Source: Candidatus Thalassarchaeaceae archaeon
GTDB lineage: Archaea; Thermoplasmatota; Poseidoniia; Poseidoniales; Thalassarchaeaceae
Assembly: GCA_045568115.1 (NCBI GenBank)
Contig: JBJLBO010000005.1
Location: forward strand, 319,468 to 383,467
Direction: 5' to 3'
DNA: 64,000 nt
Shown: one piece after another, positions 2-56,399 of the stretch
How the letters are laid out: each line of letters opens with the position of its first letter
How positions within the stretch are numbered: position 1 is the stretch's first letter
Translations under genes and position numbers: made by a program
The notes under the pieces: model-generated
Databases searched by the model: none
What the model saw: only the letters and a program-made list of their open reading frames with translations
What the model was told of the DNA's origin: nothing

Positions 2-607
2 CCTCCTCCTGAGTTAGCGCCTAATTGTGCAGAAGCGGGGGTCCTTGGTGTACTACCTGGTATGGTTGGAACTATTCAGGCTACAGAAGCACTGAAAATT
101 ATTCTTGGAGTTGGAGAGGCACTTTCGGGGAAATTGATGATATTAGATGCGATTACAATGAACATGCGCGCTTTATCCTTCGAAGCAGATCCTAATAGAA
201 AGCCTGTCAAAAAAATGTCAAAGGAAAGCATCGAAGCTGTCTGTAAATCACAAACACCGAAAGTTGTAGCCCCGAATAATTCAATGCAAATTACCCCTAA
301 TGAGTTTATTAACAAGAAAACAAATGGTTGGGAGCCTTTCTTACTTGACGTACGCAGACAGAATGAAGAATCAATCGTTTCTCTGCCAAACACAAATCTG
401 AGAATAGAGCACACCTCTGTGCCAAAGCGAAGTTCTGAAATCCCCAAAAATCGAGATATCGTTGTTTATTGCAGAGTAGGGGGTCGATCAGAGGTTGTTG
501 CAAATTGGCTAATTCAGTCTGGTTGGGACCATTCTAGAGTTTGGAACCTTGCAGGTGGAGTCCATTTGTGGGCTGATCAAATTGATTCATCGATACCTAA
601 ATATTAG
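2..607 (+). CDS. MoeB/ThiF-family E1-like adenylyltransferase, C-terminal part fused to a rhodanese domain (MoeZ/MOCS3-like). It is 5'-truncated by the window edge.
   Basis: The frame is open from position 2. The translation PPPELAPNCAEAGVLGVLPGMVGTIQATEALK matches the conserved ThiF/MoeB C-terminal motif. A rhodanese domain follows, with the catalytic Cys in VVYCRVGGRSEVVANWL. The stop codon is at 605-607. Confidence 0.8.
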   Translation, partial: PPPELAPNCAEAGVLGVLPGMVGTIQATEALKIILGVGEALSGKLMILDAITMNMRALSFEADPNRKPVKKMSKESIEAVCKSQTPKVVAPNNSMQITPNEFINKKTNGWEPFLLDVRRQNEESIVSLPNTNLRIEHTSVPKRSSEIPKNRDIVVYCRVGGRSEVVANWLIQSGWDHSRVWNLAGGVHLWADQIDSSIPKY

Positions 608-617
608 TCAGATAATA

Positions 618-727
618 AGTGGTGAAATACCATTCAGTAACTTGTTTAATTGTGGTAAATAATAGTTAAAAATGTTGCTTGAATAAAGTAATAATTTACA
701 AACTTTGATTTATTGTGGTAAAAATAG
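618..727. promoter_or_regulatory. AT-rich promoter region upstream of the E1 gene carrying three copies of GTGGT[A/G]AAAT (620-630, 652-662, 715-725)
   Basis: Direct repeats read from the sequence: gtggtgaaata, gtggtaaataa and gtggtaaaaat, spaced by 32 bp and 63 bp. Confidence 0.3.
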
Positions 728-774
728 CCCTAGTCTACCGATTGTTTGTTGTACTAGTTGCAACACGAGAAGGC

Positions 775-3639
775 ATGGTAGGGCGACGCGGCTTGTGGCT
801 CTGCCCGACTTGCAATAAGCATCAAACTTGGAAATCTAGAGATTCTAGTACGTCACGCCTTGACCGTAAGTGCATCTCTTGTAGTCAAAGAATTCGAGTC
901 ACTCTCGATCGCTCAGGAGCTGGAAGAGGGAGGACCCAACAAGCAAGAGTTTGGGAGAGGAAAGCAAGCACCCCGATGAAAGAATTAGAGCAGGAAGCAA
1001 TCTTGAGAGATAGAGATAAGAATTCAATAAATGTTGAGGGCACCTCATCCGCTAAGAGTCCGACACAACAAGACCTCCCCCCTCTATGGGGTGCCGATTG
1101 GATGCCGACTTCCCCCCTCATATTCTCGCATAAAATAAATTCAAAAGAAGTACGCAAGGAATTAATCCGATTCGTTATTGAAAGACATGATGGTTATGTC
1201 GAAGAAATCACAGAATGTTGGGATTTACTCAATGCATCGAAGTCATTCACAGGAGATACCTACCATGAATTCTGTCAAAATTTCAATAATGAGCTTTCGA
1301 AGAAACTACGAGAGAGAGTTTTCGAACCTGGATTCGCTAACCTCGCAGATGAAGAAATAATACCACGTAGAAGTGGGACAATCTACCTAAATAGGCGCGT
1401 CACGAGGTTATTGCGCGACGTCGCACTCTGTTTGCGTAGAATAGCGTACAAAGCATCAATCACCGTTGAACAACGATTTAATTGGCAAAGATGGATGACT
1501 AGAACACGTGCTCTTGATGAACACCTGAAGGACCTATTCACCAATGGCGTCCCTACCCCTGATGGCAGTCACTTTGGAGGAAAGGGGTTTCGCTCAACAT
1601 GGCAAGAAGGAATTGTTGCATGTGCGACAGGATTAACCAGAGCAATCGACCTTGAAAGTGAAAAAACTGAGATGGCCGATGTCGTCGCCCCAATGATTCG
1701 AGATGTTGGACTTGCATTAGCCATGGGGCAAACTCCTCTTGAAATTTTTAATGCACAAGTAGGCAAGTCAGCATCAAATATGGATGGTGGGCAGAATGAT
1801 GCAGGAGGAAGAGACCTACATGTTGGGAATTGGGAAAAAAGAGTATTACCACCAACTGCCCCATTACCCATTGCTAGCGCTACCGCTACAGGAATCGCTC
1901 TCGCTGCTCAAAGGCTCTCAATACCTCGATTTCATTTGGCTCCTGTAGGAGAAGGATGTAGTAGCAGTGGTGAATTTTGGGAAGCAATGAATCTTGCAGG
2001 CGCTCGTGGTTTACCCATTGCATTCATGATACAGAACAATCAAATCGCACTTGATACATTTACAGTAAGTCAATCCGGAGCAGAAACATTTGGAGACAAA
2101 GGTTACTCGATGGGGATTCCATCTTGGACTATTGATGGGTCTGACCCGGCTGAATTTCACGCCTCTACTTGCGCTGCCCGTGAATACGCCTTAGATGGAG
2201 GAGGTCCTACTTTGATTCATGTTGAAACCATGCGTGGTTGTGGGCACGCACACCACCATGACGACCTATATCTTGGAGCAATTAGTAGGAATCCTCCAGG
2301 TTATGTTGACCGCGAATTGCTTGCATATTGGGCGGAAAAAGACCCTGTTCCAAATCATCGAGATTTACTGATTCGATTGGGAATTAGTACATCAAGAATT
2401 GCAAAAATGGAAAATGAAGAACAATCTCTTGTTGATTCTGCAAGAAAAGAAATGGAGATGACTCCTTGGCCTGAAGGGAACACGGTAACCGTCGGAGTGA
2501 CTTCAATTCATGATGCTAGCACGCATTCAGAACAATTCGATAGATTTGGAGAAAATACTCAAAGTGGTCAATCACCACTAGAAAATGGAGAGACGTCTAT
2601 TGAATTCTCTAATGCCACAAATGCATGGACCTTCAGCAAAGCCATCCAAAACGGAATGGTAGCTCTCGCAGAAAAATATGGAAAATCAATTGTTTTCATG
2701 GGAGAGGACATGGAAATTGCTGGAGCCTTTGGTATGAATCTCCCCCTGAAGGCTAGAGGGCATTCAGATCGACTGCTAGATATGCCGCTTTCAGAAGCAG
2801 CAATCATCCACTCAGCCACAGGTGCTGCTCTTGGAGGAATGCGGCCGGTTGCAGAGATTCAATTCGGGGGATTCGCGGCACTAGCAATGAATCCTCTAAT
2901 CAATAACGCGGCTCAATTGAGATGGAGATGGGGAGCTGATGTACCACTAACGATCAGAATTCCTTTGGGTGCAAAAACAAGAAGTGGCCCATTCCATGCG
3001 AACATGATAGAATCGTGGTTTACTAATGACCCCGGTTTAGTCATTGTATTCCCAAGTACACCTCAAGATGCTTATGACCTACTGGTTGAGTCTCATGCAT
3101 TGGAAGACCCTGTTGTCTTCTTGGAACACATTGGCCTCTATGGCCTTAGAGGAGGTTTGACGGGATGGGGGCAATCAATCAATCAAGTTGTAGATACAAA
3201 AGCAGTTCATGGACGACTCGCAAGGGGTGAGAACAGTATTGGCAAAGCCCGAGTTGTAAGAGGCGGTAATGATGCAACTATAGTCACCTGGGGTGCCATG
3301 GTCCACGTCGCTTTAGAGGCTGCAAAAGAGGCCTCAAAGAAGGGGATAGAGGCCGAAATCATTGATCTACGCACAATTATGCCATTCGATGCACAAACCT
3401 GTATTGACTCTGTACGAAGAACTGGGCGACTAGTAGTTCTGCAAGAAGCACAATACACAGGAGGATTTGGTCACACCATTAACAGTCGAATTTTGGAAGA
3501 AGCTTTTTGGAATCTTGAAGCAACTCCGGTTGTCATTGGGGCACTAGATACACCGGTTCCATTCTCTCCTCCATTAGAGGACCATACTATTCCAACCGCA
3601 GAATTGGTTCTGCGACATTTACTAAGGATGTGTGAATGA
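775..3639 (+). CDS. 2-oxoacid dehydrogenase E1 component with fused alpha (TPP-binding) and beta (transketolase-like) subunits. An N-terminal extension includes a CxxC...CxxC zinc-ribbon-like segment. The start is uncertain: GTG at 715, ATG at 775 or ATG at 976.
   Basis: E1-alpha motifs: STWQEGIVACATGL (GQEA-like), MIRDVGLALAMG (YRDHG-like), GGRDLHVG, ASATATGIALAAQ and FGDKGYSMGIPSWTIDGSDP. E1-beta follows: AIQNGMVALAEKYGKSIVFMGED, PLSEAAIIHSATGAALGGMRPVAEIQFGGF and an alpha/beta C-terminal domain. The frame is open from 715 with no stop. Residues encoded by 775-975 contain CPTCNKHQTW...CISCSQRI. Confidence 0.75.
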   Translation: MVGRRGLWLCPTCNKHQTWKSRDSSTSRLDRKCISCSQRIRVTLDRSGAGRGRTQQARVWERKASTPMKELEQEAILRDRDKNSINVEGTSSAKSPTQQDLPPLWGADWMPTSPLIFSHKINSKEVRKELIRFVIERHDGYVEEITECWDLLNASKSFTGDTYHEFCQNFNNELSKKLRERVFEPGFANLADEEIIPRRSGTIYLNRRVTRLLRDVALCLRRIAYKASITVEQRFNWQRWMTRTRALDEHLKDLFTNGVPTPDGSHFGGKGFRSTWQEGIVACATGLTRAIDLESEKTEMADVVAPMIRDVGLALAMGQTPLEIFNAQVGKSASNMDGGQNDAGGRDLHVGNWEKRVLPPTAPLPIASATATGIALAAQRLSIPRFHLAPVGEGCSSSGEFWEAMNLAGARGLPIAFMIQNNQIALDTFTVSQSGAETFGDKGYSMGIPSWTIDGSDPAEFHASTCAAREYALDGGGPTLIHVETMRGCGHAHHHDDLYLGAISRNPPGYVDRELLAYWAEKDPVPNHRDLLIRLGISTSRIAKMENEEQSLVDSARKEMEMTPWPEGNTVTVGVTSIHDASTHSEQFDRFGENTQSGQSPLENGETSIEFSNATNAWTFSKAIQNGMVALAEKYGKSIVFMGEDMEIAGAFGMNLPLKARGHSDRLLDMPLSEAAIIHSATGAALGGMRPVAEIQFGGFAALAMNPLINNAAQLRWRWGADVPLTIRIPLGAKTRSGPFHANMIESWFTNDPGLVIVFPSTPQDAYDLLVESHALEDPVVFLEHIGLYGLRGGLTGWGQSINQVVDTKAVHGRLARGENSIGKARVVRGGNDATIVTWGAMVHVALEAAKEASKKGIEAEIIDLRTIMPFDAQTCIDSVRRTGRLVVLQEAQYTGGFGHTINSRILEEAFWNLEATPVVIGALDTPVPFSPPLEDHTIPTAELVLRHLLRMCE

Positions 3640-9398: not shown

Positions 9399-10232
9399 AT
9401 GACCAGCGCCACTCTTGCTTGGGTTCTCGAGCGACTGGCAAAGGGAGAGAGAGTTGCTCTAGCATCTGTTGTTGAAGCAAAAGGTAGTGTACCAGGGAAA
9501 CCAGGAGCACGATTGGCTATGAGCAATATTGGAGGAAGGCATGGTACTGTAGGAGGAGCCGGCCTAGAATTGAAAGTGGAAAAACATCTAAAGAAGATGC
9601 TAGAAAATGGTTCATCGGCTAGTAGAATTGAGAATTATGTCCTACATAGAGATGCAAAGGGCAAAGAAGCGACTGCCTTGGACAGTCTATGTGGCGGACA
9701 AGTATCGGTCTCATTGGAGGTTTTGGATCCTGTGCCTCACATACTAATATCAGGAGGAGGCCATTGCGGCCAAGCTATTGCTTCTGTTTGTGATAATCTG
9801 GGATGGTCTCACAGTGTTTACGACATACGAAGTGAGTTTGCAGATTCTGATTTATACCCTAATGCAATTGAAAATCACCATGGTGATGTGAAAGACTTTT
9901 TGGACTCTCTTCAGATAAAAAAAATAATTAGATTTTCTGATGTATTGCTCCTAGGACATGATTGGACTGTTGACCAAGAGATGCTAATTGGATTGCTTCT
10001 AGAGAGAGGAGATAATGATAGACCACGAATAGGAGCTATTGGCTCACGATCAAAGTGGAAGGCTTTCAGAAAGGCAGCAATAGACTCCGGAGTGAGTGAT
10101 TCGGCAATAGATTCAGTCCGCTGCCCGATAGGATTCAACATAGGAGCGGAGACTCCTGAAGAAATTGCAATCTCAGTCTGTGCGGAAATTATGGCCCTTG
10201 AGAAAGGAATTACCAGCAACTCCGAAGACTGA
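9399..10232 (+). CDS. xdhC: XdhC/CoxI-family molybdenum-hydroxylase maturation (Moco insertion) protein
   Basis: It has the XdhC_CoxI N-terminal domain (LASVVEAKGSVPGKPGARLAMSNIGGRHGTVGGAGLE) and a Rossmann-like C-terminal domain (ILISGGGHCGQAIASV). Confidence 0.75.
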   Translation: MTSATLAWVLERLAKGERVALASVVEAKGSVPGKPGARLAMSNIGGRHGTVGGAGLELKVEKHLKKMLENGSSASRIENYVLHRDAKGKEATALDSLCGGQVSVSLEVLDPVPHILISGGGHCGQAIASVCDNLGWSHSVYDIRSEFADSDLYPNAIENHHGDVKDFLDSLQIKKIIRFSDVLLLGHDWTVDQEMLIGLLLERGDNDRPRIGAIGSRSKWKAFRKAAIDSGVSDSAIDSVRCPIGFNIGAETPEEIAISVCAEIMALEKGITSNSED

Positions 10233-11538: not shown

Positions 11539-12186
11539 ATGCGCAAGGTAGTCCTGAGGTGGAGAATTAACTCACTTCAAGGTGCTAAGGAGCTTGGGAA
11601 AATATTAGAAATCTGTGATAGGATAGAGATTCTAGCACACTTAGGATTTCAGGATGGTGGAATAGTTCAACTTGCAGAGGTAAAACTCAAACAAGGAAAA
11701 GATGTGAATGAACTCTCAAATTTACCTAGTTTCGAAGTGCTAGAAATTCATGAAGAAAATGAGGAAGGTGTCCTACTAAGCCTATTATGCCATCACACTC
11801 TTGCGAAATCTGCAATCGAATTCTCAAATTTGCATCTTCAATGTCCTTACAGCATTGATTCAGAAAAAGGAATGGAGCTGAGAGTGACTGGATTGACCAC
11901 CGCAATGCGACGATTCCTAAACCTCCTCCGCCTCGTACTTCCTCCTGACAAAGTAAGTGTGATTACAGATAAATCGAAACATGTAAATGGATGGGCTGAG
12001 GTGCTAACTAAAAGACAACAAGAAGTAATCCAGCATGCAGTTCGTAGAGGCTATTATGACAATAATGGAAATTCAAGAATAAAGGATTTAGCAGAAGAGC
12101 TTGGCATTTCTCGATCTACCTATGGTGGCCACCTTAGTGAGGCTGAAAAGGCAATTCTGAAGAAAGTCGGTTCGGACCTTGAATGA
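11539..12186 (+). CDS. HTH_10 (Bat/bacterio-opsin-activator-type) transcriptional regulator
   Basis: It has the C-terminal HTH_10 motif RQQEVIQHAVRRGYYDNNGNSRIKDLAEELGISRSTYGGHLSEAEKAILKKV and lies directly upstream of coxS. Confidence 0.7.
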   Translation: MRKVVLRWRINSLQGAKELGKILEICDRIEILAHLGFQDGGIVQLAEVKLKQGKDVNELSNLPSFEVLEIHEENEEGVLLSLLCHHTLAKSAIEFSNLHLQCPYSIDSEKGMELRVTGLTTAMRRFLNLLRLVLPPDKVSVITDKSKHVNGWAEVLTKRQQEVIQHAVRRGYYDNNGNSRIKDLAEELGISRSTYGGHLSEAEKAILKKVGSDLE

Positions 12187-12239
12187 GTCCATAGGACTCA
12201 ACCGAAGCGTAATAGGACAACCATGAGTGGATTCGATGC

Positions 12240-12809
12240 ATGGTGCAGCACCGGCTTCCAATGCTTCCCTCTGCGAGGGAAGTTCCTTGGGCATCCTTGG
12301 TGAATGGTGTTGAGAAGCAGCTAAACATCGAGGGAAATGCGATTCTGCTCGATGTTCTTCGTGATCAAGCAGGGAGTTTGGGCACGAAGCGAGGCTGCGA
12401 TATGGGGACTTGTGGATGCTGCTCGGTACTGATTGATGGGCAGCCTCGACTCTCCTGTTTGACGCTTGCAGCGGAGGCAGATGGTTGTGAGATTACGACT
12501 GTTGAAGGTCTTGCTGAGGGACACCATCTTCATCCGATTCAAGAGATGTTTGCGGAGTGCGGTGGGTCGCAGTGCGGCTTCTGCACTCCGGGATTCCTGG
12601 TTGTTACATCAGCGCTATTGGATGAGAATCCAAATCCTAGCGACGATGAAATCAAGTGTGCAATCGAAGGAAATCTTTGCCGCTGCACCGGTTACCAACA
12701 AATTGTAGATTCGGTACGAGCGGCATCTGAAATTTTGACTTCGGGCAAGAATATCGAGGATTCAACCTCGCCAAAGAGTGACCCTCATCCGGGATTCGCT
12801 GGAGAGTGA
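12240..12809 (+). CDS. coxS: Molybdenum hydroxylase small subunit, [2Fe-2S] ferredoxin-like (CoxS/XdhA family)
   Basis: Plant-type and second 2Fe-2S motifs are present: CDMGTCGCCSVLIDGQPRLSC, GGSQCGFCTPGF and CRCTGYQQIV. Confidence 0.85.
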   Translation: MVQHRLPMLPSAREVPWASLVNGVEKQLNIEGNAILLDVLRDQAGSLGTKRGCDMGTCGCCSVLIDGQPRLSCLTLAAEADGCEITTVEGLAEGHHLHPIQEMFAECGGSQCGFCTPGFLVVTSALLDENPNPSDDEIKCAIEGNLCRCTGYQQIVDSVRAASEILTSGKNIEDSTSPKSDPHPGFAGE

Positions 12810-12813
12810 TTTG

Positions 12814-15618
12814 ATGGCTGGATCAGAGGATAATCCATCCGGTGATAAGAATGAGGATGAGATGGTCGGCTACCGGCAGCAGCCGGGAAAGTTGCCTTTC
12901 TCAAAACCCGGCTCTGGTGGCAAAAATCGATTCTCTCGGCCGACGGATGCAGCGATGATTCCCGAGTCCCAAGGTGGTCAAAAGAGCCAGCCTTGGGGGT
13001 CACATCGTCACGATGAATTGGTCAGTGGCCAGATAATCGGTAAGCCAACAGCATTGGTCGACAGTCGCTGGAAGGTGACTGGGCAGGCTCACTATGGAGA
13101 CGATGTGCGCTTGGCCGGCGAGTTGATTGGACGCATCATTCGCTCGCCGCATCATTATGCTAGAGTGCTAAGCATCGATTGCTCAAAAGCACTCGAATTG
13201 CCCGGCGTCGTAGCCATCGCTACTGGAGCCGATGCCGCCAATAAATTCGGAGTCCTACCTGTCACCAAAGACGAGCACGCCATGGCAGTTGAGAAAGTCC
13301 GCCACGCTGGTGACCTCGTCGCTTGCGTGGCAGCCGAAGATGAAGCGACGGCACGCGAGGCCGAGCGTTTGATCGAAGTCGAATACGAAATCCTCGATTC
13401 AATCCACGATATGCGCGACGGTCTCGATGATTCAGAAAATCCAATCCACGACCGCGGAAAGTATCACATCGGAGAGGCGAATGTTCAGAAGCGAGTTTTT
13501 CAGGAGTTCGGCGACATCGATGGAATGGCTTCGAGTGCGGTCGCCAGTCACAAGCAAAATTGGTTGTTCGCGGGTGTGAATCACGCTGCGACTGAGCCTC
13601 ATGCTGTGGTTGCTCACTGGGACCCCTCGGGTCGATTGACGCTCTACACACCTCAACAAGTCCCTCACTATGTCCACAGAGCTCTGGCCGACGTACTCGA
13701 GATTCCTATGCATCAGATCAATGTGCACCGCACCTTTGTCGGTGGTGGGTTTGGAGGCAAGTCCGACCCGTTTCCGCATGAGATGTGTGCCGCTATTTTG
13801 GCGCGGAAATCTGGGCGTCCGGTGCGGATTTGCTTCGACCGCGAAGAAGTCTACTGGATCAATCGCGGTCGCCACCCCTCACGTATCGAGATGAATCTGC
13901 ACGCGGATTCGGATGGGAGAATCTGTGGAATCGAAACTGATGCTCTGATTGATGGTGGCGCGTTCGCCTCATTCGGCCACGTCACGACTTATTACAATGG
14001 GGTGCTACACACCGCGCCATACGAAATTGGAGCATTCCATTACACAGGAGCTCGCGTCTGGACGAATAAACCAGCAAGTGGTGCGATGCGAGGTCATGGT
14101 GCTGTGAATTCACGCTGCGCGGTTGAGACGGGGTTGGATGACCTATCCGAGCAACTCGCCGTCGATCCGATTACCCTGAGATTGGCCAACTTGTTACCAC
14201 CACACTCAGCGACAATCACCGGCTTCCGCGTGACTAGTATCGGTATGCGCGAATGTCTCGAGCGAGTGAAAGAAGCCAGTGGCTGGGACGAAAAATTCCG
14301 TAAGATGCCACTGGGCAAAGGAATCGGCATTGGCTGTGGATTCTTCATCTCCGGCTCAGGCCTGCCGATTCATTGGGATCCAAACAAGTTCCCACATGCG
14401 ACGGTGCACCTGAAAATCGACATGGATGGAGGTGTCACCGTCCACACAGGAGCAGCGGAAATTGGCCAAGGCTCCGACACCGTCGTTGCCCAATCCGTTG
14501 CCGAAGTCCTCGGACTTCCTCTCGACATGATTCGAATCAAATCCCGAGACTCCGATACATCACCCGTCGACCTCGGATCTTACTCATCGCGCGTCACTTT
14601 CATGAATGCAAACGCGGCGATTTCTGCAGCCATGCAAATACGCGATAATCTGCTAGACGCAACCGTAGAAATCACAGGCGCCGACCGTGCGAAATTAGTC
14701 CTAGGAGATAGGCGTATCTTCGCCAAAAACGACCCCGCAGTTGGGGTCTCATACCTTGAGGCACTCCACAAAGCGCAGGAAGACCGAGGAGCACTCATCG
14801 CATCGGGCGCATACAGAACCCCACCGATGGGACGAACCCACAAGGGTGCTGCCGCCGGCTTAGCGCCGGCTTACTCATTCTCAGCTTACGTTGCAGAGGT
14901 GTCCGTCGACGTAGAAACCGGGCAAACAAAGGTGGAGAAAGTCTGGGCTGCCCACGATTGTGGTAAGGCACTCAATCCACTTGCAGTCAAGGGGCAAATC
15001 ATCGGCTCCTGCCACATGGGAATGGGGCAAGTTCTCAGCGAAGAAATGCGCTACGGCCGTGGTGGCCATTTGATGAATCCCGACCTGCTCGATTACAAGA
15101 TTCCTAGCGTCCACGAGATGCCGGAAGTCGTACCGATTATTGTTGAATCAAACGACCCAGAAGGGCCGTTTGGGGCGAAGGAAGCGGGCGAAGGCCCACT
15201 TCTACCAATTTTGCCCGCTGTCTGTAATGCAGTGTATGATGCAGTGGGCGTGAGGACTGCTGAATTGCCAATCACGCCCGATCGCATGCACAGATTGATC
15301 GAAAGGAAATGCAAGGCCGATGGAGTCTCTGAGCCTCTCGACCTTGAAGCACCGCGGCTCGAGCACTCGGCTCTGCAGGATACTCTCGCCGAGCGCGCTG
15401 CCGAGCATGCTGAACGAGACCTCACTCGCAGGCTCGATGATGACCGCCAGCCCTACCACAATGGAGCGCTCTTCGGACTCGACCCAACAATCCCTCCTGA
15501 CGAGATAAATGAGCGCTGGGCGGTCAATTTGATTCCATCTGAAGAATACATCACGGAGCCACGTTTGGCTGGAAGCGCTTGGAAGCACACTGAGCGCCGA
15601 CATCGAGGTGATGCCTGA
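12814..15618 (+). CDS. coxL: Molybdenum hydroxylase large subunit (molybdopterin-binding, CoxL/XdhB family) with about 70-aa N-terminal and about 100-aa C-terminal extensions
   Basis: The Ald_Xan_dh hammerhead starts at IGKPTALVDSRWKVTGQAHYGDD. Moco-binding segments include GGGFGGK, AHDCGKALNPLAVKGQIIG and EGPFGAKEAGEGPLL. The ATG at 12814 immediately follows the coxS stop at 12807-12809. Confidence 0.85.
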   Translation: MAGSEDNPSGDKNEDEMVGYRQQPGKLPFSKPGSGGKNRFSRPTDAAMIPESQGGQKSQPWGSHRHDELVSGQIIGKPTALVDSRWKVTGQAHYGDDVRLAGELIGRIIRSPHHYARVLSIDCSKALELPGVVAIATGADAANKFGVLPVTKDEHAMAVEKVRHAGDLVACVAAEDEATAREAERLIEVEYEILDSIHDMRDGLDDSENPIHDRGKYHIGEANVQKRVFQEFGDIDGMASSAVASHKQNWLFAGVNHAATEPHAVVAHWDPSGRLTLYTPQQVPHYVHRALADVLEIPMHQINVHRTFVGGGFGGKSDPFPHEMCAAILARKSGRPVRICFDREEVYWINRGRHPSRIEMNLHADSDGRICGIETDALIDGGAFASFGHVTTYYNGVLHTAPYEIGAFHYTGARVWTNKPASGAMRGHGAVNSRCAVETGLDDLSEQLAVDPITLRLANLLPPHSATITGFRVTSIGMRECLERVKEASGWDEKFRKMPLGKGIGIGCGFFISGSGLPIHWDPNKFPHATVHLKIDMDGGVTVHTGAAEIGQGSDTVVAQSVAEVLGLPLDMIRIKSRDSDTSPVDLGSYSSRVTFMNANAAISAAMQIRDNLLDATVEITGADRAKLVLGDRRIFAKNDPAVGVSYLEALHKAQEDRGALIASGAYRTPPMGRTHKGAAAGLAPAYSFSAYVAEVSVDVETGQTKVEKVWAAHDCGKALNPLAVKGQIIGSCHMGMGQVLSEEMRYGRGGHLMNPDLLDYKIPSVHEMPEVVPIIVESNDPEGPFGAKEAGEGPLLPILPAVCNAVYDAVGVRTAELPITPDRMHRLIERKCKADGVSEPLDLEAPRLEHSALQDTLAERAAEHAERDLTRRLDDDRQPYHNGALFGLDPTIPPDEINERWAVNLIPSEEYITEPRLAGSAWKHTERRHRGDA

Positions 15619-16607
15619 TGCGTACACCACCATTCGAGTTGCACACGCCCAAGAACCTCGAGGAGGCTCTCGCCACAGCAGGTGAGTTAGCCGACGCTGG
15701 CCAAGACTTCGACTGGATCGCCGGCGGCACTGACCTGCTGCCCAATTACAAGTGGCACATCAACGTCAAACCACACGTGATTTCTCTGGCCAAAGTCAGT
15801 GAACTCACCGAGCTCAATCCAAACCATATCGGCGCAATGGTCAGACTACATGACCTAGTCAAGTCAGAACACACACACACAGTCCTCGCCAAAGCCGCCG
15901 ACTCAATCGCCAGCGTACTCATCCGCCGCTCTGGAACCGTCGGCGGCAACATCTGCCTCGACACCCGATGCTATTGGTTCAACCAGACCGAGCAGTGGAG
16001 AGAATCGATTGACTGGTGCTACAAATGCGACTGCGGAACGGGGGCCGACTGCCGCGTCATACCAAACCAGAATACACTCTGCGTCGCCACCTACCAAGCC
16101 GACCTTGCTCCGGTCCTGTTGTGCCTAGGTGCAACCATTCACCTCGCTTCACCGGACGGCAAACGCTCGATGCCACTCAGCGAATTTTTCCAACTCGACG
16201 GGATGACTCGCAATGTGCTGCAGCCCGGCGAGTTGGTCACTCACCTGAGCCTACCCGATGATTCCGGTGAGTGGCAAGGAGATTACCAGAAGTTGAGGCA
16301 GCGCGAGTCCTGGGATTTCCCAGAAGCTGGTGTAGCGGTACTTTGGAAGCAAAATGGTGGAGCGAAACCTGCTGCTCTCAGAGTTGCAACAACTGGACTC
16401 GAATCGGTTCCTGGATTTCATACGGAAGAAGCCGAATCTGCCTTGGCAGAGTGGAATGGTGAAGATTCCATAAACAATTTAGCCGAAGCAATCCGCAAAT
16501 CGGTGAAACCTGTACAAAACACATGGTACGCGCCTTCGTATAGGAGAAAGATGGTGAAGGTGTTAACACGCCGAGCATGTGTAGGACTACTGGAGGAATT
16601 GTCATGA
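15618..16607 (+). CDS. coxM: Molybdenum hydroxylase FAD-binding subunit (CoxM/HcrB family) with a Cys-rich insertion
   Basis: The FAD_binding_5 motifs are IAGGTDLLPNYK and GTVGGNIC. A 40-aa insertion, DTRCYWFNQTEQWRESIDWCYKCDCGTGADCRV, sits after the GGN motif. The start overlaps the coxL stop. Confidence 0.8.
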   Translation: MRTPPFELHTPKNLEEALATAGELADAGQDFDWIAGGTDLLPNYKWHINVKPHVISLAKVSELTELNPNHIGAMVRLHDLVKSEHTHTVLAKAADSIASVLIRRSGTVGGNICLDTRCYWFNQTEQWRESIDWCYKCDCGTGADCRVIPNQNTLCVATYQADLAPVLLCLGATIHLASPDGKRSMPLSEFFQLDGMTRNVLQPGELVTHLSLPDDSGEWQGDYQKLRQRESWDFPEAGVAVLWKQNGGAKPAALRVATTGLESVPGFHTEEAESALAEWNGEDSINNLAEAIRKSVKPVQNTWYAPSYRRKMVKVLTRRACVGLLEELS

Positions 16608-42387: not shown

Positions 42388-45300
42388 TCAACTTCCGCCG
42401 CCTTTACCTTGTTGGGCATAATAAGAAGCATAGTACTGCTCAGCATACTGTCTAGCATCTGCTTCGGCATATCCTTGGCCAACCATCTGCTGTACATATG
42501 CTTCTACAGGGTCCATCTGTTGAACGCCACCGAACTGTTCAACACTATCTTCAACATCGTCTTTACCTCGTGATCTGAAAATCAAAGTAACTGCAACAAT
42601 TCCTACAATCAGGATTGCCCCCCCTGCAACATATACAATAGTCATACCAAATCCACTGGATGATTCACAACCTGGTGCAGATGAATCTAATTCGCAGGGG
42701 TCATCTGATCTTGGAAGTAAATATATCTTGAAGTCATAATCAAGTTGGTATCTCTCACCATCTCCTTCAACAACACGCCAGTATACTGTTGTGTTCTCTC
42801 CATTCGTAGTGTATAAATCCGCTATATTCAGAGTCAATACAAACGATTGACCATCAATAAGAGGAGACATGCCACCTAAATCCGTAGAATTGTACTTGCC
42901 AAGAGAGTGTTGATTGGCTTTAATCGTTGGAGAACTATCGAATATATTTGGATCCAAGGCCACTTCAATTGTCAAGCCATATTCAGCACCTGAAACAACA
43001 GACCCTGAGACAGAAACCAAATCTTGACTTTGAGAATCTGTAGATTTAGGAGAAGTCAATCGCACATCAGGTGGTGCATCTCCGAAATCCTCACCAACTA
43101 CTTGAATTTGGATTTCAGCAGTATTGGAAGATTTCTTTCCAGCTCTATCCAAAACCTGCAATTCAACAATAATTTCATGCGGGTTGTTGTTTCCTATATT
43201 AGTCAGATTTCGGAAAACGTAAGACCATATATCGCCTCCAGCTGCACTAGAAATTTCAAATTCGTGAAGAAGATCTGATGGGATGGCCTCATTAGCAGGA
43301 TAATCATAGTATATATTATACCTATAATATTCAATTCCAGATTGCCCTTGTGGTGCATCTTCATCGAATGATCCTGATGCATCAAACTCCAAACTAATAT
43401 CACCAGTATCCTTCAATCGAACTTGATAAATTGGTATATCGCCATCCATTTCAAGAAGAGTAACGTACTCATCAGTAATAGAATTTTGAACCAAAGCAAT
43501 ATTGGCAGTAGGGTAATAATCATCGGCTAAATCATCATTGGTTTCTAAAACAATTGATGCAATTCTTGTATGACCTTCTTCATCGTGTAGATATAGCGTC
43601 AAGAGCCATTCCGCACCAACAAGACAACCTGTTTGGGAACCAGAATCACCAACGCAAAATGACCCAGGGGTAGGGATGCTTGGAGTGTCTTGTTGAATAT
43701 GGCTAATTTCACCATAATCAATAATCTCGCCATTCCATCCTGTAACTGAATTATTCACTAAGTTTGGAGTTAGAGTCCAATCCGCTGTTAGGACATCTGC
43801 AAGTTCAGGATTATCCGTGATAAAGTTGAATGATAAATCTGCATTCGATTTAATGTAAAATCTTTCATATCCAAATCCATTATTAGCTTCGGTAGGTTGC
43901 TCATCATTTATCTCTAATGTGAAACCATCCCCTCTAATTCCGAATGATGATGGATAAGGTGTTACTTGATAGGACAACATGTTAGAAAGCAGAGGCATTG
44001 AGGTCCCACCATATGGTTGAGACACAGAAGGATTCTCTACATCAATAGTTGTGATTATCATTCCACCTTGCCCTATGCCACATATTGAGAGAAGAGATTG
44101 AGAACTTTCGGATTGACTTCTCAATAAAGTATGGAATGTTCCTTCCGACTGCCTAGCAATCTTGCCTCCACAAATTGTTGGAATCTGCGTATCCTGAGTT
44201 TGTGCTGTATTAAGACCAGCTAATGCAACGTATGAACCTCCATGTATTCCTGCGAATGTATTCGTATCAACATCTTTCATCAATGGATGGAAGGCATCAA
44301 TAATAGTCAAATCATCAAATGTCACAGTGTTGTTGGTGTTACGCATTTTAACATCCAAATCGTGGATAATATTCTCATCATAGGCGGTTCTATATGGACC
44401 AAGGTGCATCTGCACAGTACCACCGAAAGTCATGTAACTCTCCAGTACATCATTTACTGAAATTCCAGACTCTCGTGTCTCAGAAAGGGATTGGTAATAT
44501 TCCCCATATTCGACATTGTAATCGGTTTGCCATGGAAGTAGAATCTTGTCATAATGACTCATCCAATCGGGAGTTGCATAACGATCCCAATCATCTACAG
44601 TATACTGTGTGTAGGTCATCCCCATTGACTCAAGGTCACTCTTAACTCGCTGGAGACGCTTTTGATCTGTTGGGTTAGACAAAATTGCAACATCAATATT
44701 GTCAACAAAATCAATTTCAAAGAAACGGTCGTTTCCTGAACGATTCCCATCTTCTACCATTGTAGCGAAGAAACTTATGTTGTATCTCGTATCACTTTGC
44801 CAACCACCCCAGGGGCTACTCCAATTAGCTTGATCTCTTTGATGAGGATCTAAATCGAAAGGACTGTTATCTGCAGTTTCATTGTAGACCATCTGACCAG
44901 TCGCCAAATTGACTATCTTCATGGATAGCTCATATTCTCCTCCAATAACTCCATTGAGCAGTGGGACAGAGAAACTATGTTCAGAAGAATCATCGATAGC
45001 ATAAACACAATTGTATGTAATATCTGAAACACAATCTAGAACATCGGGCTGCATTAAGGTGATATCTGCACTAGCAATACTGAATATGATTTGAGTGTGA
45101 TTATTAGCAGAAGTTATTTCACTCATATTGTACCAAGCAGTTCCTGTAATATTAGAGTCTAATATCGTTGTCGCATCTATCCTATAGATTCCTGAACGGA
45201 AATTATGTGAAGCCACATTAACAGTAGTTTTCTCTAACGCATCAAGGCCCGTTACATTGTTCATGTAAGTTCCATCATCCTCAAAAGTAAACTCATCAAT

Positions 45301-53568: not shown

Positions 53569-55365
53569 ATGGCTCAGATTGTCAATGATTTCACAGTCAA
53601 TATCGCAACTGCAAATGGAACCGGTTCTCAATCGGCGAACTTAATTCTGCTAAACTCAATGTTTGAAATGGGAGTTTCCGTAAGTGGAAAAAACCTCTTT
53701 CCAAGCAATATTTCGGGCCTTCCAACATGGTTCATTATCCGCGCTAGTGATGCGGGTTATCAGGCCCCAGGCGACAATACTCACATTCAGATTGTGATGA
53801 ATAAAGACACATGGATGGCAGATGTAGAAAAGGCCGAATCGGGGACTATAATTATCTACAATCAAGATGTCAAACTTCCAATTGAACGTGATGATTGTAC
53901 TGTTCTTGGCATGCCAATGACAAAAATGGCTCGTTCGATAAATCCTAAACTGGCTCGATTGATGGCAAATATGTACTACGTAGGGGGTTTAGCCGAAATT
54001 CTTGGTATTGATTCTGAGGCAATTCATTCAGCGGTAACCCAGCAATTCAAGGGCAAAGAAAAGGCGATTGAACTCAATATGCAGGCCATTGGGGAAGGTC
54101 GAACATTTGCTAGAGAGAATTGGGACTGCAATATTGCACATGTAGTTGAGGCTCGAGAAAAGAATCCAAACACATACCTAATCGATGGTAATGAGGCTAC
54201 TGCGCTAGGATGTATATTTGGTGGAGTTAACATGCTTTCTTGGTATCCAATTACTCCATCTTCATCACTTGCTGAATCTATAATCGGTTGGATTCCGAAA
54301 ATACGAACTGGAGATGACGGAGGGGCTACCTGTGCAGTCATTCAGGCTGAGGATGAATTAGCCGCTGCTGGAATGGTGATTGGAGCAGGATGGGCTGGTG
54401 GTCGAGGTATGACCTGTACTAGTGGACCTGGAATTTCTCTAATGTCTGAATTCATTGGACTTGCATACTTTGCAGAAGTACCTGGAGTAATTTGGGATGT
54501 CAATCGGGTTGGTCCTTCAACAGGACTACCCACTCGTACTCAACAAGCAGACTTGACCTTGCTTTACGAGGCAAGTCATGGTGACACGCAACATATCGTC
54601 TTGATTCCTGGAACCGTCGACGAATGCTTTGAATATGGATGGAAGGCTTTTGATTACGCTGAGAGATTTCAGACTCTCGTCTTTGGATTCAGTGATTTAG
54701 ATCTAGGGATGAACCAGTGGGTTACGGCAGGATTTGAGTACCCTGAACTCCCACTTGACAGAGGAAAGGTATTGCGCACTCAGAAGGAACTGGATGCTAT
54801 AGAAAACTTCGGACGCTACCGAGATGTTGATGGTGATGGAATACCATACAGAACACTACCTGGAAGCGGACTTGAACCTATTCTTTACCGAGGCACTGGT
54901 CATGATGAAGATGGTGTCTATTCAGAGGACCCTGCAGTCTACCATGCAACAGTCTCTCGACTAAAGCGAAAAATCGATGGGGCTCGAGATCTTCTTCCAG
55001 CACCTATTATTCGTAATGAGGAAGAAAGACAAATTGGAATTGTCTACTACGGTTCAGTTGAGAACTCTATCAAAGAGATTGATGACATCCTTGAGGCTAC
55101 TGGAATCAAGGTTAGTACCTGTAGAGTTCGTGCCTTACCATATCATTCAGAAGTTGAAAAATTTGTAGAGGAACATGAACAAATTGTTGTTCTTGAAGTA
55201 AATAGAGATGGTCAACTATACGGTATTCTACGAAAAGAAATGCCTACTGATCTACTCAACAAAATGTATTGTGTAGCATTTAGTGATGGAATGCCTCCTC
55301 GAGCACAAGTGTATGTTGACATGATACTAGAAACACTTGGAGTAACACAAGAGGTGAAGGCATGA
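53569..55365 (+). CDS. korA: 2-oxoacid:ferredoxin oxidoreductase alpha subunit (fused alpha/gamma domains)
   Basis: It has POR/OFOR domains (gamma-like N-terminus, then the alpha domain with GDGIPYRTLPGSG). It is 598 aa and is followed by an overlapping beta-subunit gene. Confidence 0.85.
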   Translation: MAQIVNDFTVNIATANGTGSQSANLILLNSMFEMGVSVSGKNLFPSNISGLPTWFIIRASDAGYQAPGDNTHIQIVMNKDTWMADVEKAESGTIIIYNQDVKLPIERDDCTVLGMPMTKMARSINPKLARLMANMYYVGGLAEILGIDSEAIHSAVTQQFKGKEKAIELNMQAIGEGRTFARENWDCNIAHVVEAREKNPNTYLIDGNEATALGCIFGGVNMLSWYPITPSSSLAESIIGWIPKIRTGDDGGATCAVIQAEDELAAAGMVIGAGWAGGRGMTCTSGPGISLMSEFIGLAYFAEVPGVIWDVNRVGPSTGLPTRTQQADLTLLYEASHGDTQHIVLIPGTVDECFEYGWKAFDYAERFQTLVFGFSDLDLGMNQWVTAGFEYPELPLDRGKVLRTQKELDAIENFGRYRDVDGDGIPYRTLPGSGLEPILYRGTGHDEDGVYSEDPAVYHATVSRLKRKIDGARDLLPAPIIRNEEERQIGIVYYGSVENSIKEIDDILEATGIKVSTCRVRALPYHSEVEKFVEEHEQIVVLEVNRDGQLYGILRKEMPTDLLNKMYCVAFSDGMPPRAQVYVDMILETLGVTQEVKA

Positions 55366-56399
55366 GTCTCAGACCTATACAACTCAATGTCATTGACTTG
55401 CCTAAGGGCGATTATACAGGAGGGAAGTCTTCTCTCTGCCCTGGTTGTGGACATGACCAGATCTCAAACATCATCATTCAGGCGGCTTGGGAAAATGGAA
55501 TTGCTCCCGAAACTATTGCCAAGATGAGTGGAATCGGTTGCTCATCCAAAACTCCTGCATATTTCCTTGGCAAGTCTCATGGCTTCAATACAGTTCATGG
55601 AAGAATGCCTTCAGTAACTACTGGAGCAAATATGGTCAACAAGGACCTCACATTCATTGGAGTATCGGGTGACGGCGATACCGCTTCAATTGGAATAGGA
55701 CAATTTGTTCACGCAATTAGAAGAAATCTGAATATGGTCTACATTGTCGAAAACAATGGTGTTTACGGACTAACCAAGGGTCAGTACTCAGCAACAGTCG
55801 AAAAAGGATCTAAGAAAAAGAAAGGAATCACTAATGAAAATCCACCAATTGACCTCTGTAAGATGGCCATCAATCTTGGATGTGGATTTGTGGCACGGTC
55901 CTTCTCTGGAAGTAAGAAACAACTCACTGCACTGATGAGAGCCGCACTTTCACACAAAGGAATGGCTGTAATAGATGTAATTTCTCCATGTGTTACATTC
56001 GCCAATAATGATGAATCTTACAGATCATACAACTATGTCAAAGCCAATGATGATGAACTACATTCAGTAGATTACATTCCTCACTTCACTCCTGTTGAAG
56101 AAGTAGAAATTCCAGAAGGTGAGTTCAAGGATATCAAACTCTTCGATGGCTCTACACTACGACTTGAAACAATTGGAGATGACCACGACCCAAGTGATGC
56201 AGTTGCAGCTCTTGCAGCAATTCACGAAGCGGAGAAGGAAAACAGACACGTGACTGGTCTGTTACATTACAATTCAGAAATGAAAACCGCAGATGAGGCT
56301 CTTGATTTGACTCAAAAGCCACTCGTCGATTTAGCAGAAAATGAAATGCGACCTAGTAAGGATGTATTAGAGGAAATAAACAATTCATTCCGTGTTTAA
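55362..56399 (+). CDS. korB: 2-oxoacid:ferredoxin oxidoreductase beta subunit (TPP-binding)
   Basis: It has CPGCGHDQISNIIIQAAW (a Cys motif) and the TPP-binding GDGDTASIGIGQFVHAIRRN. Its start overlaps the korA stop (ATGA). Confidence 0.85.
   Translation: MSLRPIQLNVIDLPKGDYTGGKSSLCPGCGHDQISNIIIQAAWENGIAPETIAKMSGIGCSSKTPAYFLGKSHGFNTVHGRMPSVTTGANMVNKDLTFIGVSGDGDTASIGIGQFVHAIRRNLNMVYIVENNGVYGLTKGQYSATVEKGSKKKKGITNENPPIDLCKMAINLGCGFVARSFSGSKKQLTALMRAALSHKGMAVIDVISPCVTFANNDESYRSYNYVKANDDELHSVDYIPHFTPVEEVEIPEGEFKDIKLFDGSTLRLETIGDDHDPSDAVAALAAIHEAEKENRHVTGLLHYNSEMKTADEALDLTQKPLVDLAENEMRPSKDVLEEINNSFRV

Follow-up and report, generated by a model that had tools for sequence, protein, structure and literature searches.

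HcrABC, the three-subunit 4-hydroxybenzoyl-CoA reductase (abbreviated 4-HBCR) of Thauera aromatica (PDB 1RM6/1SB3) whose FAD subunit HcrB holds an extra [4Fe-4S] cluster, accepts reduced ferredoxin as electron donor (PMC12771579). A four-Cys [4Fe-4S] motif is also present in the FAD subunit of PaoABC, an aldehyde-oxidising enzyme of E. coli (PMC13404670). The urolithin C dehydroxylase (Ucdh) UcdCFO of Enterocloster, a reductive dehydroxylase of the xanthine-oxidase family that has been compared directly with 4-HBCR, has an FAD subunit without the [4Fe-4S] loop and uses NADH (PMC11760930, PMC12771579). The four-Cys insertion loop is an already known and widespread feature.

The 64-kb stretch of Thalassarchaeaceae (marine Group IIb, MGIIb) DNA analysed here (the window) contains a small-large-medium subunit operon with the same three-subunit architecture as HcrABC (Table 1). 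The small-subunit translation shows the Cys motifs CDMGTCGCC...C and CGFC...CRC, contains no twin-arginine (Tat) signal, and matched 1T3Q_A and 1RM6_C in the PDB, each at about E 3e-44. The large-subunit reading frame opens with a GTG, but the ATG at 12814, located 4 nt past the small-subunit stop, is the likely start, and the first 25 codons of the frame were not conserved in orthologs. The large subunit matched 1RM6_A with an E value of 3e-189 (635 bits, versus 280 bits for the next PDB chain) and is highly conserved between species (79-98%). Two extensions of this subunit were specific to MGII. The N-terminal one was 74-85% conserved over 69 MGIIb orthologs and had no counterpart in HcrA or in the nearest non-MGII relatives L081 and L082, while the C-terminal one, lying beyond residue 844 where the HcrA alignment stops, was 66-80% conserved among MGIIb orthologs and was not found in L081 or L082; neither had a Pfam match. 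The ATG of the medium-subunit gene overlaps the large-subunit stop codon (TGATG), and its reading frame, judged to be real, encodes 329 aa with matches to FAD_binding_5 (E 5e-33) and CO_deh_flav_C. Its closest solved relative was HcrB (1RM6_B, E about 1e-44; 9.7e-45), to which the family profile aligned with 363 bits in one unbroken stretch including the insertion. As the initial annotation had anticipated, the predicted fold pointed to the same protein: the AlphaFold (AF2) model (pLDDT 95.6) found 1rm6_B as its top Foldseek match (TM 0.89/0.91, rmsd 2.0 Å), and chains without the loop reached a TMq of about 0.75.

Table 1 Features of the Hcr-like locus and its surroundings (positions in the window)
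Feature	Position	Strand	Evidence
XdhC-family molybdenum-cofactor insertion chaperone, 5' of operon	9399..10232	+	Pfam XdhC_CoxI, XdhC_C
HTH_10 (archaeal Bat-type) transcription regulator, immediately upstream	11539..12186	+	Pfam HTH_10, E 2e-15
Mosaic block	12150..16500	.	Foreign GC content; nearest relative unlike that of flanks
Small subunit, 2 x [2Fe-2S], HcrC/CoxS type	12240..12809	+	Pfam Fer2, Fer2_2; Cys motifs; PDB matches
Large molybdopterin subunit (HcrA-like)	12778..15618	+	Pfam Ald_Xan_dh_C, MoCoBD_1, MoCoBD_2; 1RM6_A match
MGII-specific N-terminal extension of large subunit, about 73 aa	12814..13032	+	Motif VGYRQQPGKLPFSKPGSGGK...HRHD
MGII-specific C-terminal extension of large subunit, about 100 aa	15310..15615	+	Beyond HcrA alignment
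Medium FAD subunit (HcrB-like)	15618..16607	+	Pfam, PDB-chain alignment, AF2 model, Foldseek
Insertion, residues about 114-156, with putative [4Fe-4S] ligands	15957..16085	+	HcrB alignment, column conservation, pLDDT
C118, putative [4Fe-4S] ligand	15969-15971	+	Aligned to HcrB C122
C134, putative [4Fe-4S] ligand	16017-16019	+	Aligned to HcrB C138
C137 and C139, MGII-only Cys pair	16026-16034	+	Clade-specific
C145, putative [4Fe-4S] ligand	16050-16052	+	Aligned to HcrB C146
C155, putative [4Fe-4S] ligand	16080-16082	+	Aligned to HcrB C155
2-oxoacid:ferredoxin oxidoreductase, two subunits	53569..56399	+	Pfam POR, POR_N, PFOR_II, TPP_enzyme_C

The initial annotation had placed a Cys-rich insertion with five or six Cys directly behind the GGN motif of the FAD subunit, at the HcrB site. 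The position was borne out. Alignments to CoxM/CutM-type chains broke in two (query 3-113 and about 161-325, with almost no counterpart in between), as did the family profile against CutM (positions 2-117 and 162-326), so the insertion comprises about 40-43 aa immediately C-terminal to GGN; the string cited earlier, DTRCYWFNQTEQWRESIDWCYKCDCGTGADCRV, corresponds to residues 115-147. The segment is indeed Cys-rich, but the count for the region is seven, with Cys at residues 113, 118, 134, 137, 139, 145 and 155. The alignment to 1RM6_B ran straight through it with all four HcrB cluster Cys kept, and the columns of C118, C134, C145 and C155 were invariant in 137 homologs of 30-88% identity. Since these four Cys account for half of the only eight invariant columns over the 137 sequences, their conservation is far above chance. 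The motif was also found in 120/120 close homologs and in the genomes of 80/80 MGIIb species, as expected if the earlier reading was correct. The CxC pair C137/C139 was limited to MGII and missing in the nearest outgroups (KEDY, KADC). Judged by alignment, the loop is of the four-Cys type that holds the extra cluster of HcrB, and together with the predicted fold, in which the loop has pLDDT values of 83-94 that include the lowest of the model (83-86), this suggests occupancy by a [4Fe-4S] cluster.

We consider it likely that the operon encodes an Hcr-like three-subunit enzyme with an extra [4Fe-4S] cluster and a ferredoxin-type partner, belonging to a sister clade of 4-HBCR and probably acting on a different substrate. 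The large subunit would carry the Mo-pyranopterin, the small subunit two [2Fe-2S] clusters, and the medium subunit FAD and the extra [4Fe-4S], held by C118, C134, C145 and C155 in an HcrB-like post-GGN loop of about 43 aa. Electrons would run along a wire of Mo, [2Fe-2S], [2Fe-2S], FAD, [4Fe-4S] and an external carrier. By analogy with the HcrB structure, the [4Fe-4S] would serve as a one-electron port beside the flavin, and electrons would therefore be traded with a ferredoxin-type protein, not NAD(P). For PaoABC, which also bears the cluster, no agreed physiological acceptor is known, so this partner is an analogy to a single enzyme. Electron exchange with a ferredoxin-type carrier is probable and can reasonably be inferred. 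The 2-oxoacid:ferredoxin oxidoreductase noted earlier is real by its Pfam matches and may either feed electrons into ferredoxin or draw them from it; lying 37 kb away and unlinked to the operon, it shows ferredoxin use by the cell and nothing more, and no ferredoxin gene (CxxCxxCxxxC motif) was found within the window. The earlier step from the extra cluster to a reductase was not supported, because the oxidative PaoABC has such a cluster (PMC13404670) and the reductive Ucdh lacks the loop (PMC11760930, PMC12771579). The extra cluster in itself neither sets the catalytic direction nor implies reduction. Given that its host lives as an aerobic (photo)heterotroph, we slightly favour an oxidative reaction in which a small aromatic, N-heterocyclic or aldehyde substrate is hydroxylated and electrons exit via the cluster; that the closest relative with a characterised function is a reductase argues against this preference.

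In the large subunit, the AMRGHG Arg and the catalytic Glu within KEAGEG are kept, and Ser directly follows GGGFGGK. Loops were mapped to the active site via bovine xanthine oxidase numbering (Gln767, Glu802, Arg880, Phe914, Phe1009 and Glu1261), which we take to apply here. The loops GGGFGGKSDPFPHE, ITGFRVTS and GCGFFISGSGLPIH were identical or nearly so in MGII, L081 and L082, where HcrA has GGGFGARTEALHFE, MYAQRVMS and ALSHFVSGTSTPKH. Medium subunits clustered into separate MGII and HcrB groups, with PaoB apart from both. These comparisons place the enzyme in an Hcr-like sister clade common to another archaeon and marine bacteria; because the loops conserved within this clade at the presumed active-site positions are its own, the substrate is probably other than 4-hydroxybenzoyl-CoA. 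About 80 MGIIb genomes retain the XdhC, HTH_10, small-, large- and medium-subunit genes in this order, and the operon is a conserved core locus of Thalassarchaeaceae. The XdhC gene lay upstream in nearly all related MGIIb loci extending far enough, and the HTH_10 gene kept its position in most related loci; from this position, its product is a candidate regulator of the operon. Neighbours of the non-MGII relatives included MocA, XdhC, NifS-like and ThiF genes, with no CoA ligase next to their operons, and a locus from the HcrB cluster adjoins genes for CoA-transferase, enoyl-CoA hydratase and acyl-CoA dehydrogenase. As a separate observation, the whole cassette forms a GC-rich mosaic block, with GC3 of 0.48-0.60 versus 0.26-0.36 in neighbouring genes. 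The block shares 93-98% nucleotide identity with L002, L001 and L037, to which its flanks are only 55-73% identical, and the flank on its right side matches L019 at 90-97% identity.

A genuine 4-HBCR, with the aerobic benzoyl-CoA (Box) pathway using up the benzoyl-CoA, would fit a Red Sea metatranscriptome in which a boxB-annotated gene on contigs of MGII was reported to be expressed (PMC5069720). It would also fit HcrA, HcrB and HcrC being best or joint-best among solved relatives, the lead of TIGR03194 and TIGR03195 among NCBIfam matches, the JGI name '4-hydroxybenzoyl-CoA reductase subunit beta' of orthologs, and a Cys spacing of Hcr type, not PaoB type. However, all three subunits scored well under the equivalog cut-offs (820/234/173 bits for TIGR03194/03195/03193, versus 995/405/258), and the presumed active-site loops resemble those of marine-bacterial and archaeal homologs without aromatic-CoA context. 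The window yielded neither an aryl-CoA ligase nor a benzoyl-CoA gene, its gene order recurs for ±10 kb on either side of the MGIIb loci, and the literature search gave no paper tying the enzyme to MGII. The Thauera enzyme is oxygen-sensitive, which sits poorly with an aerobic photoheterotroph. A 4-HBCR ortholog was rejected on its sub-cut-off scores, differing presumed loops and lack of nearby aryl-CoA genes, and this function is unlikely. Similarly improbable is a xanthine or purine dehydrogenase in which ferredoxin replaces NAD+, working together with pbuG, a xanthine/uracil permease whose transcription is high. In its favour are the retained Arg and catalytic Glu, the strong conservation of the large subunit, suggestive of a core function, and the MGIIb xanthine catabolism that Damashek et al. 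2021 inferred for Thalassarchaeaceae from xdhC, yagS and high pbuG transcription (PMC9723583). Yet every xanthine dehydrogenase equivalog model failed (bits/cut-off: XdhA 522/780, PRK09970 514/916, PucD 392/784, XdhB 286/850), and no uricase, allantoinase or permease gene occurs within the window. Moreover, Ser follows GGGFGGK, where xanthine dehydrogenases presumably have their substrate-binding Glu (bovine Glu802). CO dehydrogenase was rejected, with GAMRGHG in place of the form-I VAYRCSFR-type loop; the initial annotation had rightly set the enzyme apart from classical CO and xanthine dehydrogenases.

Aldehyde oxidation has a potential low enough for ferredoxin reduction, which would suit a PaoABC-like oxidoreductase for aldehyde detoxification or catabolism with the [4Fe-4S] as its electron exit. 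Alignments ran across the insertion both for PaoB (5G5G_B) and for 5Y6Q_B, the medium subunit of the aldehyde oxidase of Methylobacillus, and PaoABC is a known oxidative enzyme with such a cluster (PMC13404670). Scores were nevertheless far below the NCBIfam cut-offs (PaoC 320/1180, PaoA 129/322 bits), the large subunit reached 232 bits against PaoC and 635 against HcrA, the small subunit lacks a Tat signal, the Cys spacing of PaoB (C119, C129, C138, C157) differs, and the TM score was 0.76 to 5g5g_B versus 0.89 to 1rm6_B, making this assignment quite improbable. Least credible is a loop without [4Fe-4S] that is purely structural, binds zinc, forms a disulfide or represents a degraded [3Fe-4S] site: the aerobic host, the additional C137 and C139, the 3 aa of extra length over the HcrB loop and the pLDDT minimum would be compatible with it, but it is precisely at the four ligand positions of HcrB that the 137 diverse sequences show no variation, whereas C137 and C139 are confined to one clade, and the aerobically active periplasmic PaoABC retains such a cluster (PMC13404670).

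Compared with known systems, the preferred Hcr-like enzyme shares with HcrABC the insertion site, the four aligned cluster Cys and their spacing, the catalytic Glu and the AMRGHG Arg, and HcrABC is its best solved relative by sequence (joint-best for the small subunit) and the best structural match to the medium-subunit model. Identity is only 43% (alpha) and 32% (beta), however, and the MGII enzyme differs in its three presumed active-site loops, its longer cluster loop with the CxC pair, the two large-subunit extensions, the lack of nearby aryl-CoA genes and its aerobic archaeal host. The nearest non-MGII relatives are Hcr-like operons, uncharacterised and thus lending no functional label, in marine bacteria and one other archaeon (L081, L082-L084, L086, L088 and L089; proteins P0125-P0145), with 52-54% (alpha) and 42-46% (beta) identity. 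These stand-alone small-large-medium operons adjoin molybdenum-cofactor maturation genes, are nearly identical to the MGII enzyme in their active-site loops and share its four-Cys insertion, but lack the CxC pair and the extensions. CoxLMS/CutLMS and XdhABC/PucCDE share the superfamily, subunit organisation and CoxM-type FAD_binding_5 and CO_deh_flav_C fold, whereas their medium subunits lack the insertion; the MGII enzyme lacks the VAYRCSFR-type loop of the former, has Ser at the Glu802-equivalent position of the xanthine dehydrogenases and fails all the equivalog models. PaoABC (5G5G) and the Methylobacillus oxidase (5Y6Q) carry their insertion at the same site with far weaker similarity (TM 0.76-0.82), and PaoABC, unlike the MGII enzyme, is Tat-exported; these enzymes show that oxidative catalysis and oxygen can both go together with such a cluster, just as UcdCFO shows that cluster and reductive direction are separable.

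The medium FAD-binding subunit of this molybdenum enzyme has as its best solved relative HcrB, the medium subunit of 4-hydroxybenzoyl-CoA reductase (hereafter 4-HBCR) from Thauera aromatica (1RM6_B, E 9.7e-45). The initial annotation had described a Cys-rich insertion of about 40 residues directly after the GGN motif and had placed it at the site of the cluster loop of HcrB. Medium subunits of the CO dehydrogenase and glyceraldehyde oxidoreductase type (CoxM/CutM-type) matched the query in two pieces, approximately residues 3-113 and 161-325, with few residues between them, and a profile of 137 family members aligned with CutM at positions 2-117 and 162-326. The two-piece alignments therefore indicated that ~40 aa are inserted in FAD_binding_5 immediately behind its GGN motif, as described. 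Alignments of the query with HcrB, with PaoB of the Escherichia coli aldehyde oxidoreductase PaoABC and with chain B of the Methylobacillus aldehyde oxidase (5Y6Q_B) ran unbroken across the insertion. The Cys-rich string that had been quoted corresponded to residues 115-147, and the insertion region as a whole contained seven cysteines at positions 113, 118, 134, 137, 139, 145, and 155. To place the cysteines of HcrB, its residues 7-317 were reconstructed from the 1RM6_B alignment, and Cys residues were found at positions 117, 122, 138, 146, and 155 of the rebuilt stretch. C118, C134, C145, and C155 of the query aligned with C122, C138, C146, and C155 of HcrB, which we take to be the [4Fe-4S] ligands in 1RM6. 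These four and the unconserved C117 were the only cysteines in this region of HcrB, which is consistent with the four-ligand assignment.

Across the 137 sequences, which shared 30-88% identity with the query, only eight columns were invariant, namely G36, G37, G110, R229, and the four cysteines C118, C134, C145, and C155. The complete four-Cys motif was present in all of the 120 closest database homologs and in all of the 80 species genomes of Marine Group IIb (MGIIb), and an exhaustive search recovered a C...C...C...C insertion in nearly all of the best 150 cluster representatives. An AlphaFold2 model of the medium subunit, built on the 137-sequence alignment, had a mean pLDDT of 95.6 and a pTM of 0.93, with values of 83-94 in the insertion. 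The top match of this model in a Foldseek search of the PDB was 1rm6_B (TM 0.89/0.91, rmsd 2.0 Å over the whole chain), and loop-less chains gave a query-normalised TM of ~0.75. Both the alignment and the predicted fold thus upheld the proposed placement: the segment lay at the HcrB site with all four HcrB Cys positions kept, and it was present and conserved in orthologs. Taken together, the sequence comparisons and the model identify the insertion as a predicted HcrB-type loop with putative [4Fe-4S] ligands.

The cluster loop of the MGII proteins is three residues longer than that of HcrB and contains a K-C-D-C motif. Its cysteines, C137 and C139, were invariant in 120/120 close homologs and in 80/80 MGIIb genomes. 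The pair was replaced (KEDY, KADC) in P0123, P0124, and P0167, the protein fragments that form the nearest outgroup, and because of these replacements it is probably dispensable for cluster binding. The large subunit carries MGII-specific N- and C-terminal extensions, both of which were missing from the 4-HBCR large subunit HcrA and from the closest homologs outside MGII, encoded at locus L081 (another archaeon) and locus L082 (a marine bacterium). No Pfam match was obtained in either extension at E ≤ 10.

Features of the operon, its neighbours and other genes in the window
Feature	Position	Strand	Remarks
ThiF-tail + rhodanese protein	62-607		MoeB/UBA4-like; may be linked to the chemistry of the molybdenum cofactor or of thiolation
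2-Oxoacid dehydrogenase component	715-3639		974 aa; fused E1 (alpha+beta)
XdhC cofactor chaperone	9399-10232		Upstream of operon
Subtilase	Between XdhC and HTH_10 genes		Upstream of operon
HTH_10 regulator	11539-12186		Upstream of operon
Small 2x[2Fe-2S] subunit	12240-12809		First of three tightly packed genes
Large molybdopterin subunit	ORF 12778-15618		GTG 12778 overlaps small subunit; likely start ATG 12814
N-terminal extension of large subunit	12814-13032		~73 aa, VGYRQQPGKLPFSKPGSGGK...HRHD; conserved in MGII
C-terminal extension of large subunit	15310-15615		~100 aa; conserved in MGII
Medium FAD subunit	15618-16607	+	329 aa; third and last gene; FAD_binding_5 (E 5e-33) and CO_deh_flav_C (Pfam)
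K-C-D-C motif of the cluster loop	16026-16034		C137 and C139
EF-hand protein	32698-35631	-	Very large, 977 aa; several EF-hand pairs and LDL-receptor class A domain
FG-GAP repeat protein	42388-48783	-	Very large, 2131 aa
2-Oxoacid:ferredoxin oxidoreductase	53569-56399

Within the operon, the ATG of the medium-subunit gene overlaps the stop codon of the large-subunit gene as TGATG. The ATG at 12814 sits 4 nt past the small-subunit stop and was assigned as the likely start of the large subunit because the first 25 codons of the mechanical ORF are unconserved, with ortholog conservation starting only near residue 26. The locus comparison covered the best 80 genome loci, almost all labelled Marine Group IIb (Thalassarchaeaceae, Poseidoniales), the group to which the archaeon of the window also belongs. 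Where the contigs reached far enough, the gene order XdhC - (S8 peptidase) - HTH_10 - small - large - medium - CARDB protein - DUF4350 protein - MoxR - DUF58 was kept in nearly all MGIIb loci. The large subunit was 79-98% identical across MGIIb species, which exceeds most neighbouring genes. Because it is syntenic and strongly conserved in the related genomes retrieved, the operon is probably important to MGIIb. The next gene, encoding a CARDB/DUF11-type surface protein, begins 31 nt ahead of the medium-subunit stop (16577-16607) and was much less conserved than the enzyme genes (34-53% in most loci). The full MGIIb gene order, with a medium subunit 73% identical, was also found on a contig labelled Candidatus Neomarinimicrobiota bacterium (L051, JBJKZL010000002.1), which is probably mis-binned.

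The cassette differs in base composition from its surroundings, with a GC of 0.52-0.55 and a GC3 of 0.48-0.60, compared with ~0.41 and 0.26-0.36 in the neighbouring genes. The mean operon-flank difference in 45 other MGIIb loci was only 0.013, and ancient horizontal transfer was rejected as the cause of the anomaly because these genomes lack the contrast. From ~12150-12200 to ~16350-16500, the window shared 93-98% DNA identity with loci L002, L001, and L037, whereas its flanks shared only 55-73% with the same loci. The right flank was 90-97% identical to another locus, L019, which reached only 57-80% inside the cassette. This mosaic would reflect either homologous recombination, in which the whole operon was replaced by that of a higher-GC MGIIb-O1 lineage, or chimeric assembly of the contig. 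An exact-sequence search with the medium subunit of the window, run to see whether other assemblies show the mosaic independently, returned no record elsewhere.

The view that the enzyme is not a classical CO or xanthine dehydrogenase, advanced in the initial annotation, agreed with the active-site sequence and the equivalog scores. Inspection of the CoxL loop in the large subunit showed that the VAYRCSFR/VAYACSFR-type loop, which holds the Cu-binding Cys, was replaced by GAMRGHG. Form-I CO dehydrogenase (CoxLMS) was accordingly excluded, since the query reads SGAMRGHG where 8UEM_A has GGVAYACSFR and scored 293 vs 991 bits with TIGR02416. Thalassarchaeaceae genes annotated xdhC and yagS have been suggested as xanthine dehydrogenase (PMC9723583). 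All four xanthine dehydrogenase equivalog models (XdhABC / PucCDE / XdhAB) scored under their cut-offs for the present operon. Moreover, the large subunit reads GGGFGGK-S, not GGGFGGK-E, and the Ser presumably occupies the position of bovine Glu802. Xanthine dehydrogenase is unlikely because of these failed models and the replacement of the Glu802-type residue. Orthology to PaoABC was also rejected, as the scores for PaoC (320 bits; cut-off 1180) and PaoA (129 bits; cut-off 322) fell far short, the small subunit (MVQHRLPMLPSAREVPW...) lacked a twin-arginine motif and thus a Tat signal, and the cysteines of PaoB are spaced unlike those of the query.

For 4-HBCR itself, the large subunit matched 1RM6_A with 635 bits, compared with 280 bits for the next PDB chain, and automatic annotation already names the orthologs 4-hydroxybenzoyl-CoA reductase subunit beta. 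However, with the HcrABC equivalog models (NCBIfam TIGR03194/03195/03193, curated cut-offs), all three subunits scored under the cut-off (819.9 against 994.55 bits for alpha, 233.9 against 404.55 for beta, and 173.2 against 257.8 for gamma). The query shared 43% identity with HcrA and 32% with HcrB, and the L081 and L082 homologs showed 52-54% (large) and 42-43% (medium) identity to the query. Distance clustering, performed without support values, grouped the MGII medium subunits with ~20 uncharacterised representatives (P0125-P0145), placed HcrB in a different set and left PaoB apart. Six loops of the large subunit were compared, which we take to be those at the positions of bovine xanthine oxidase Gln767, Glu802, Arg880, Phe914, Phe1009, and Glu1261. 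Three of these six presumed active-site loops were near-identical among MGII, L081, and L082 (GGGFGGKSDPFPHE, ITGFRVTS, and GCGFFISGSGLPIH) and differed from the versions in HcrA (GGGFGARTEALHFE, MYAQRVMS, and ALSHFVSGTSTPKH). HcrA, MGII, L081, and L082 all have the catalytic Glu and the Arg loop (AMRGHG). No aryl-CoA ligase or benzoyl-CoA pathway genes were found within the 64-kb window, and the MGIIb loci had the same gene order as the window in their ±10 kb flanks. Such genes were likewise absent beside the related operons at five loci of other organisms; these operons adjoin MocA, XdhC, NifS-like, and ThiF genes, and the contigs of P0125, P0171, and P0157 were too short for this survey. 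One locus of the HcrB cluster, in contrast, had genes for a CoA-transferase, an enoyl-CoA hydratase, and an acyl-CoA dehydrogenase in its flanks. A literature search found no work tying 4-HBCR or furoyl-CoA dehydrogenase to MGII, or the one enzyme to the other. Orthology to 4-HBCR was rejected on the three sub-cut-off scores, the separate clade and the three loops unlike those of HcrA. Because the orthology tests on equivalog scores, identity and clustering, and loops failed, and the gene context covered yielded no aryl-CoA ligase or benzoyl-CoA gene, we conclude from the sequence evidence that the enzyme is Hcr-like and belongs to a sister clade of 4-HBCR that would act on a different substrate.

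The extra cluster of 4-HBCR is associated with inverted electron flow in the title of Unciuleac et al. 2004 (cited in PMC3958847), and reduced ferredoxin is the electron donor for reductive dehydroxylation by the Thauera enzyme (PMC12771579). A four-Cys [4Fe-4S] motif also occurs in the FAD subunit of the aldehyde-oxidising PaoABC (PMC13404670), whereas Ucdh, the reductive urolithin C dehydroxylase of Enterocloster, is without the loop and uses NADH (PMC11760930, PMC12771579). Since the oxidative PaoABC has the cluster and the reductive Ucdh lacks it, the cluster is best understood as a one-electron port adjacent to the flavin rather than as a marker of direction, and the earlier suggestion went too far where it took the cluster to imply a reductase. 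The 2-oxoacid:ferredoxin oxidoreductase invoked along with that suggestion is real; it is encoded 37 kb from the operon and indicates no more than the existence of a ferredoxin pool. The ferredoxin motif CxxCxxCxxxC was found in no frame of the 64-kb window, and a small ORF after the L081 medium subunit resembles ParB-type proteins rather than a redox partner. A plausible reading of the extra iron-sulfur port is that the enzyme is coupled to the ferredoxin pool and not to NAD. Electrons would then move along the path Mo - [2Fe-2S] - [2Fe-2S] - FAD - [4Fe-4S] and be exchanged in either direction with a ferredoxin-type carrier. The mature cofactor would be supplied by XdhC, and the HTH_10 protein, judged by its position alone, may regulate the operon. 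As the host is aerobic, we lean slightly towards catalysis in the oxidative direction, although the closest characterised relative, a reductase, argues for the opposite direction.

Marine Group IIb is among the most abundant groups of planktonic archaea, and we know of no cultured member. The literature searched gives these genes no more than a brief mention, under the label of putative xanthine dehydrogenase, which the present analysis makes unlikely. We consider it improbable that the Thalassarchaeaceae enzyme and the marine bacterial and archaeal sister operons constitute a functionally new family of ferredoxin-linked molybdenum enzymes in abundant aerobic plankton, acting on a common compound of dissolved organic matter. 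Such a family might, within an aerobe, take off a phenolic hydroxyl reductively and so supply an aerobic aromatic pathway that depends on CoA, or it might hydroxylate a purine or N-heterocycle in a ferredoxin-linked reaction; the CxC pair found only in MGII and the extensions of the large subunit could then suit the low-potential cluster to a cytoplasm that is oxic or to a partner dedicated to it. As an uncharacterised member of the Hcr-like clade, the enzyme derives its importance mainly from the ecology of its host. The operon also offers biochemists a well-delimited target, with three genes, four cysteines, and clade-specific active-site loops. For enzymology, the main lesson is that the loop is unusable as a marker of reductive catalysis, and the value to the field is modest: the cluster loop itself is widespread and already known from HcrB and PaoB.
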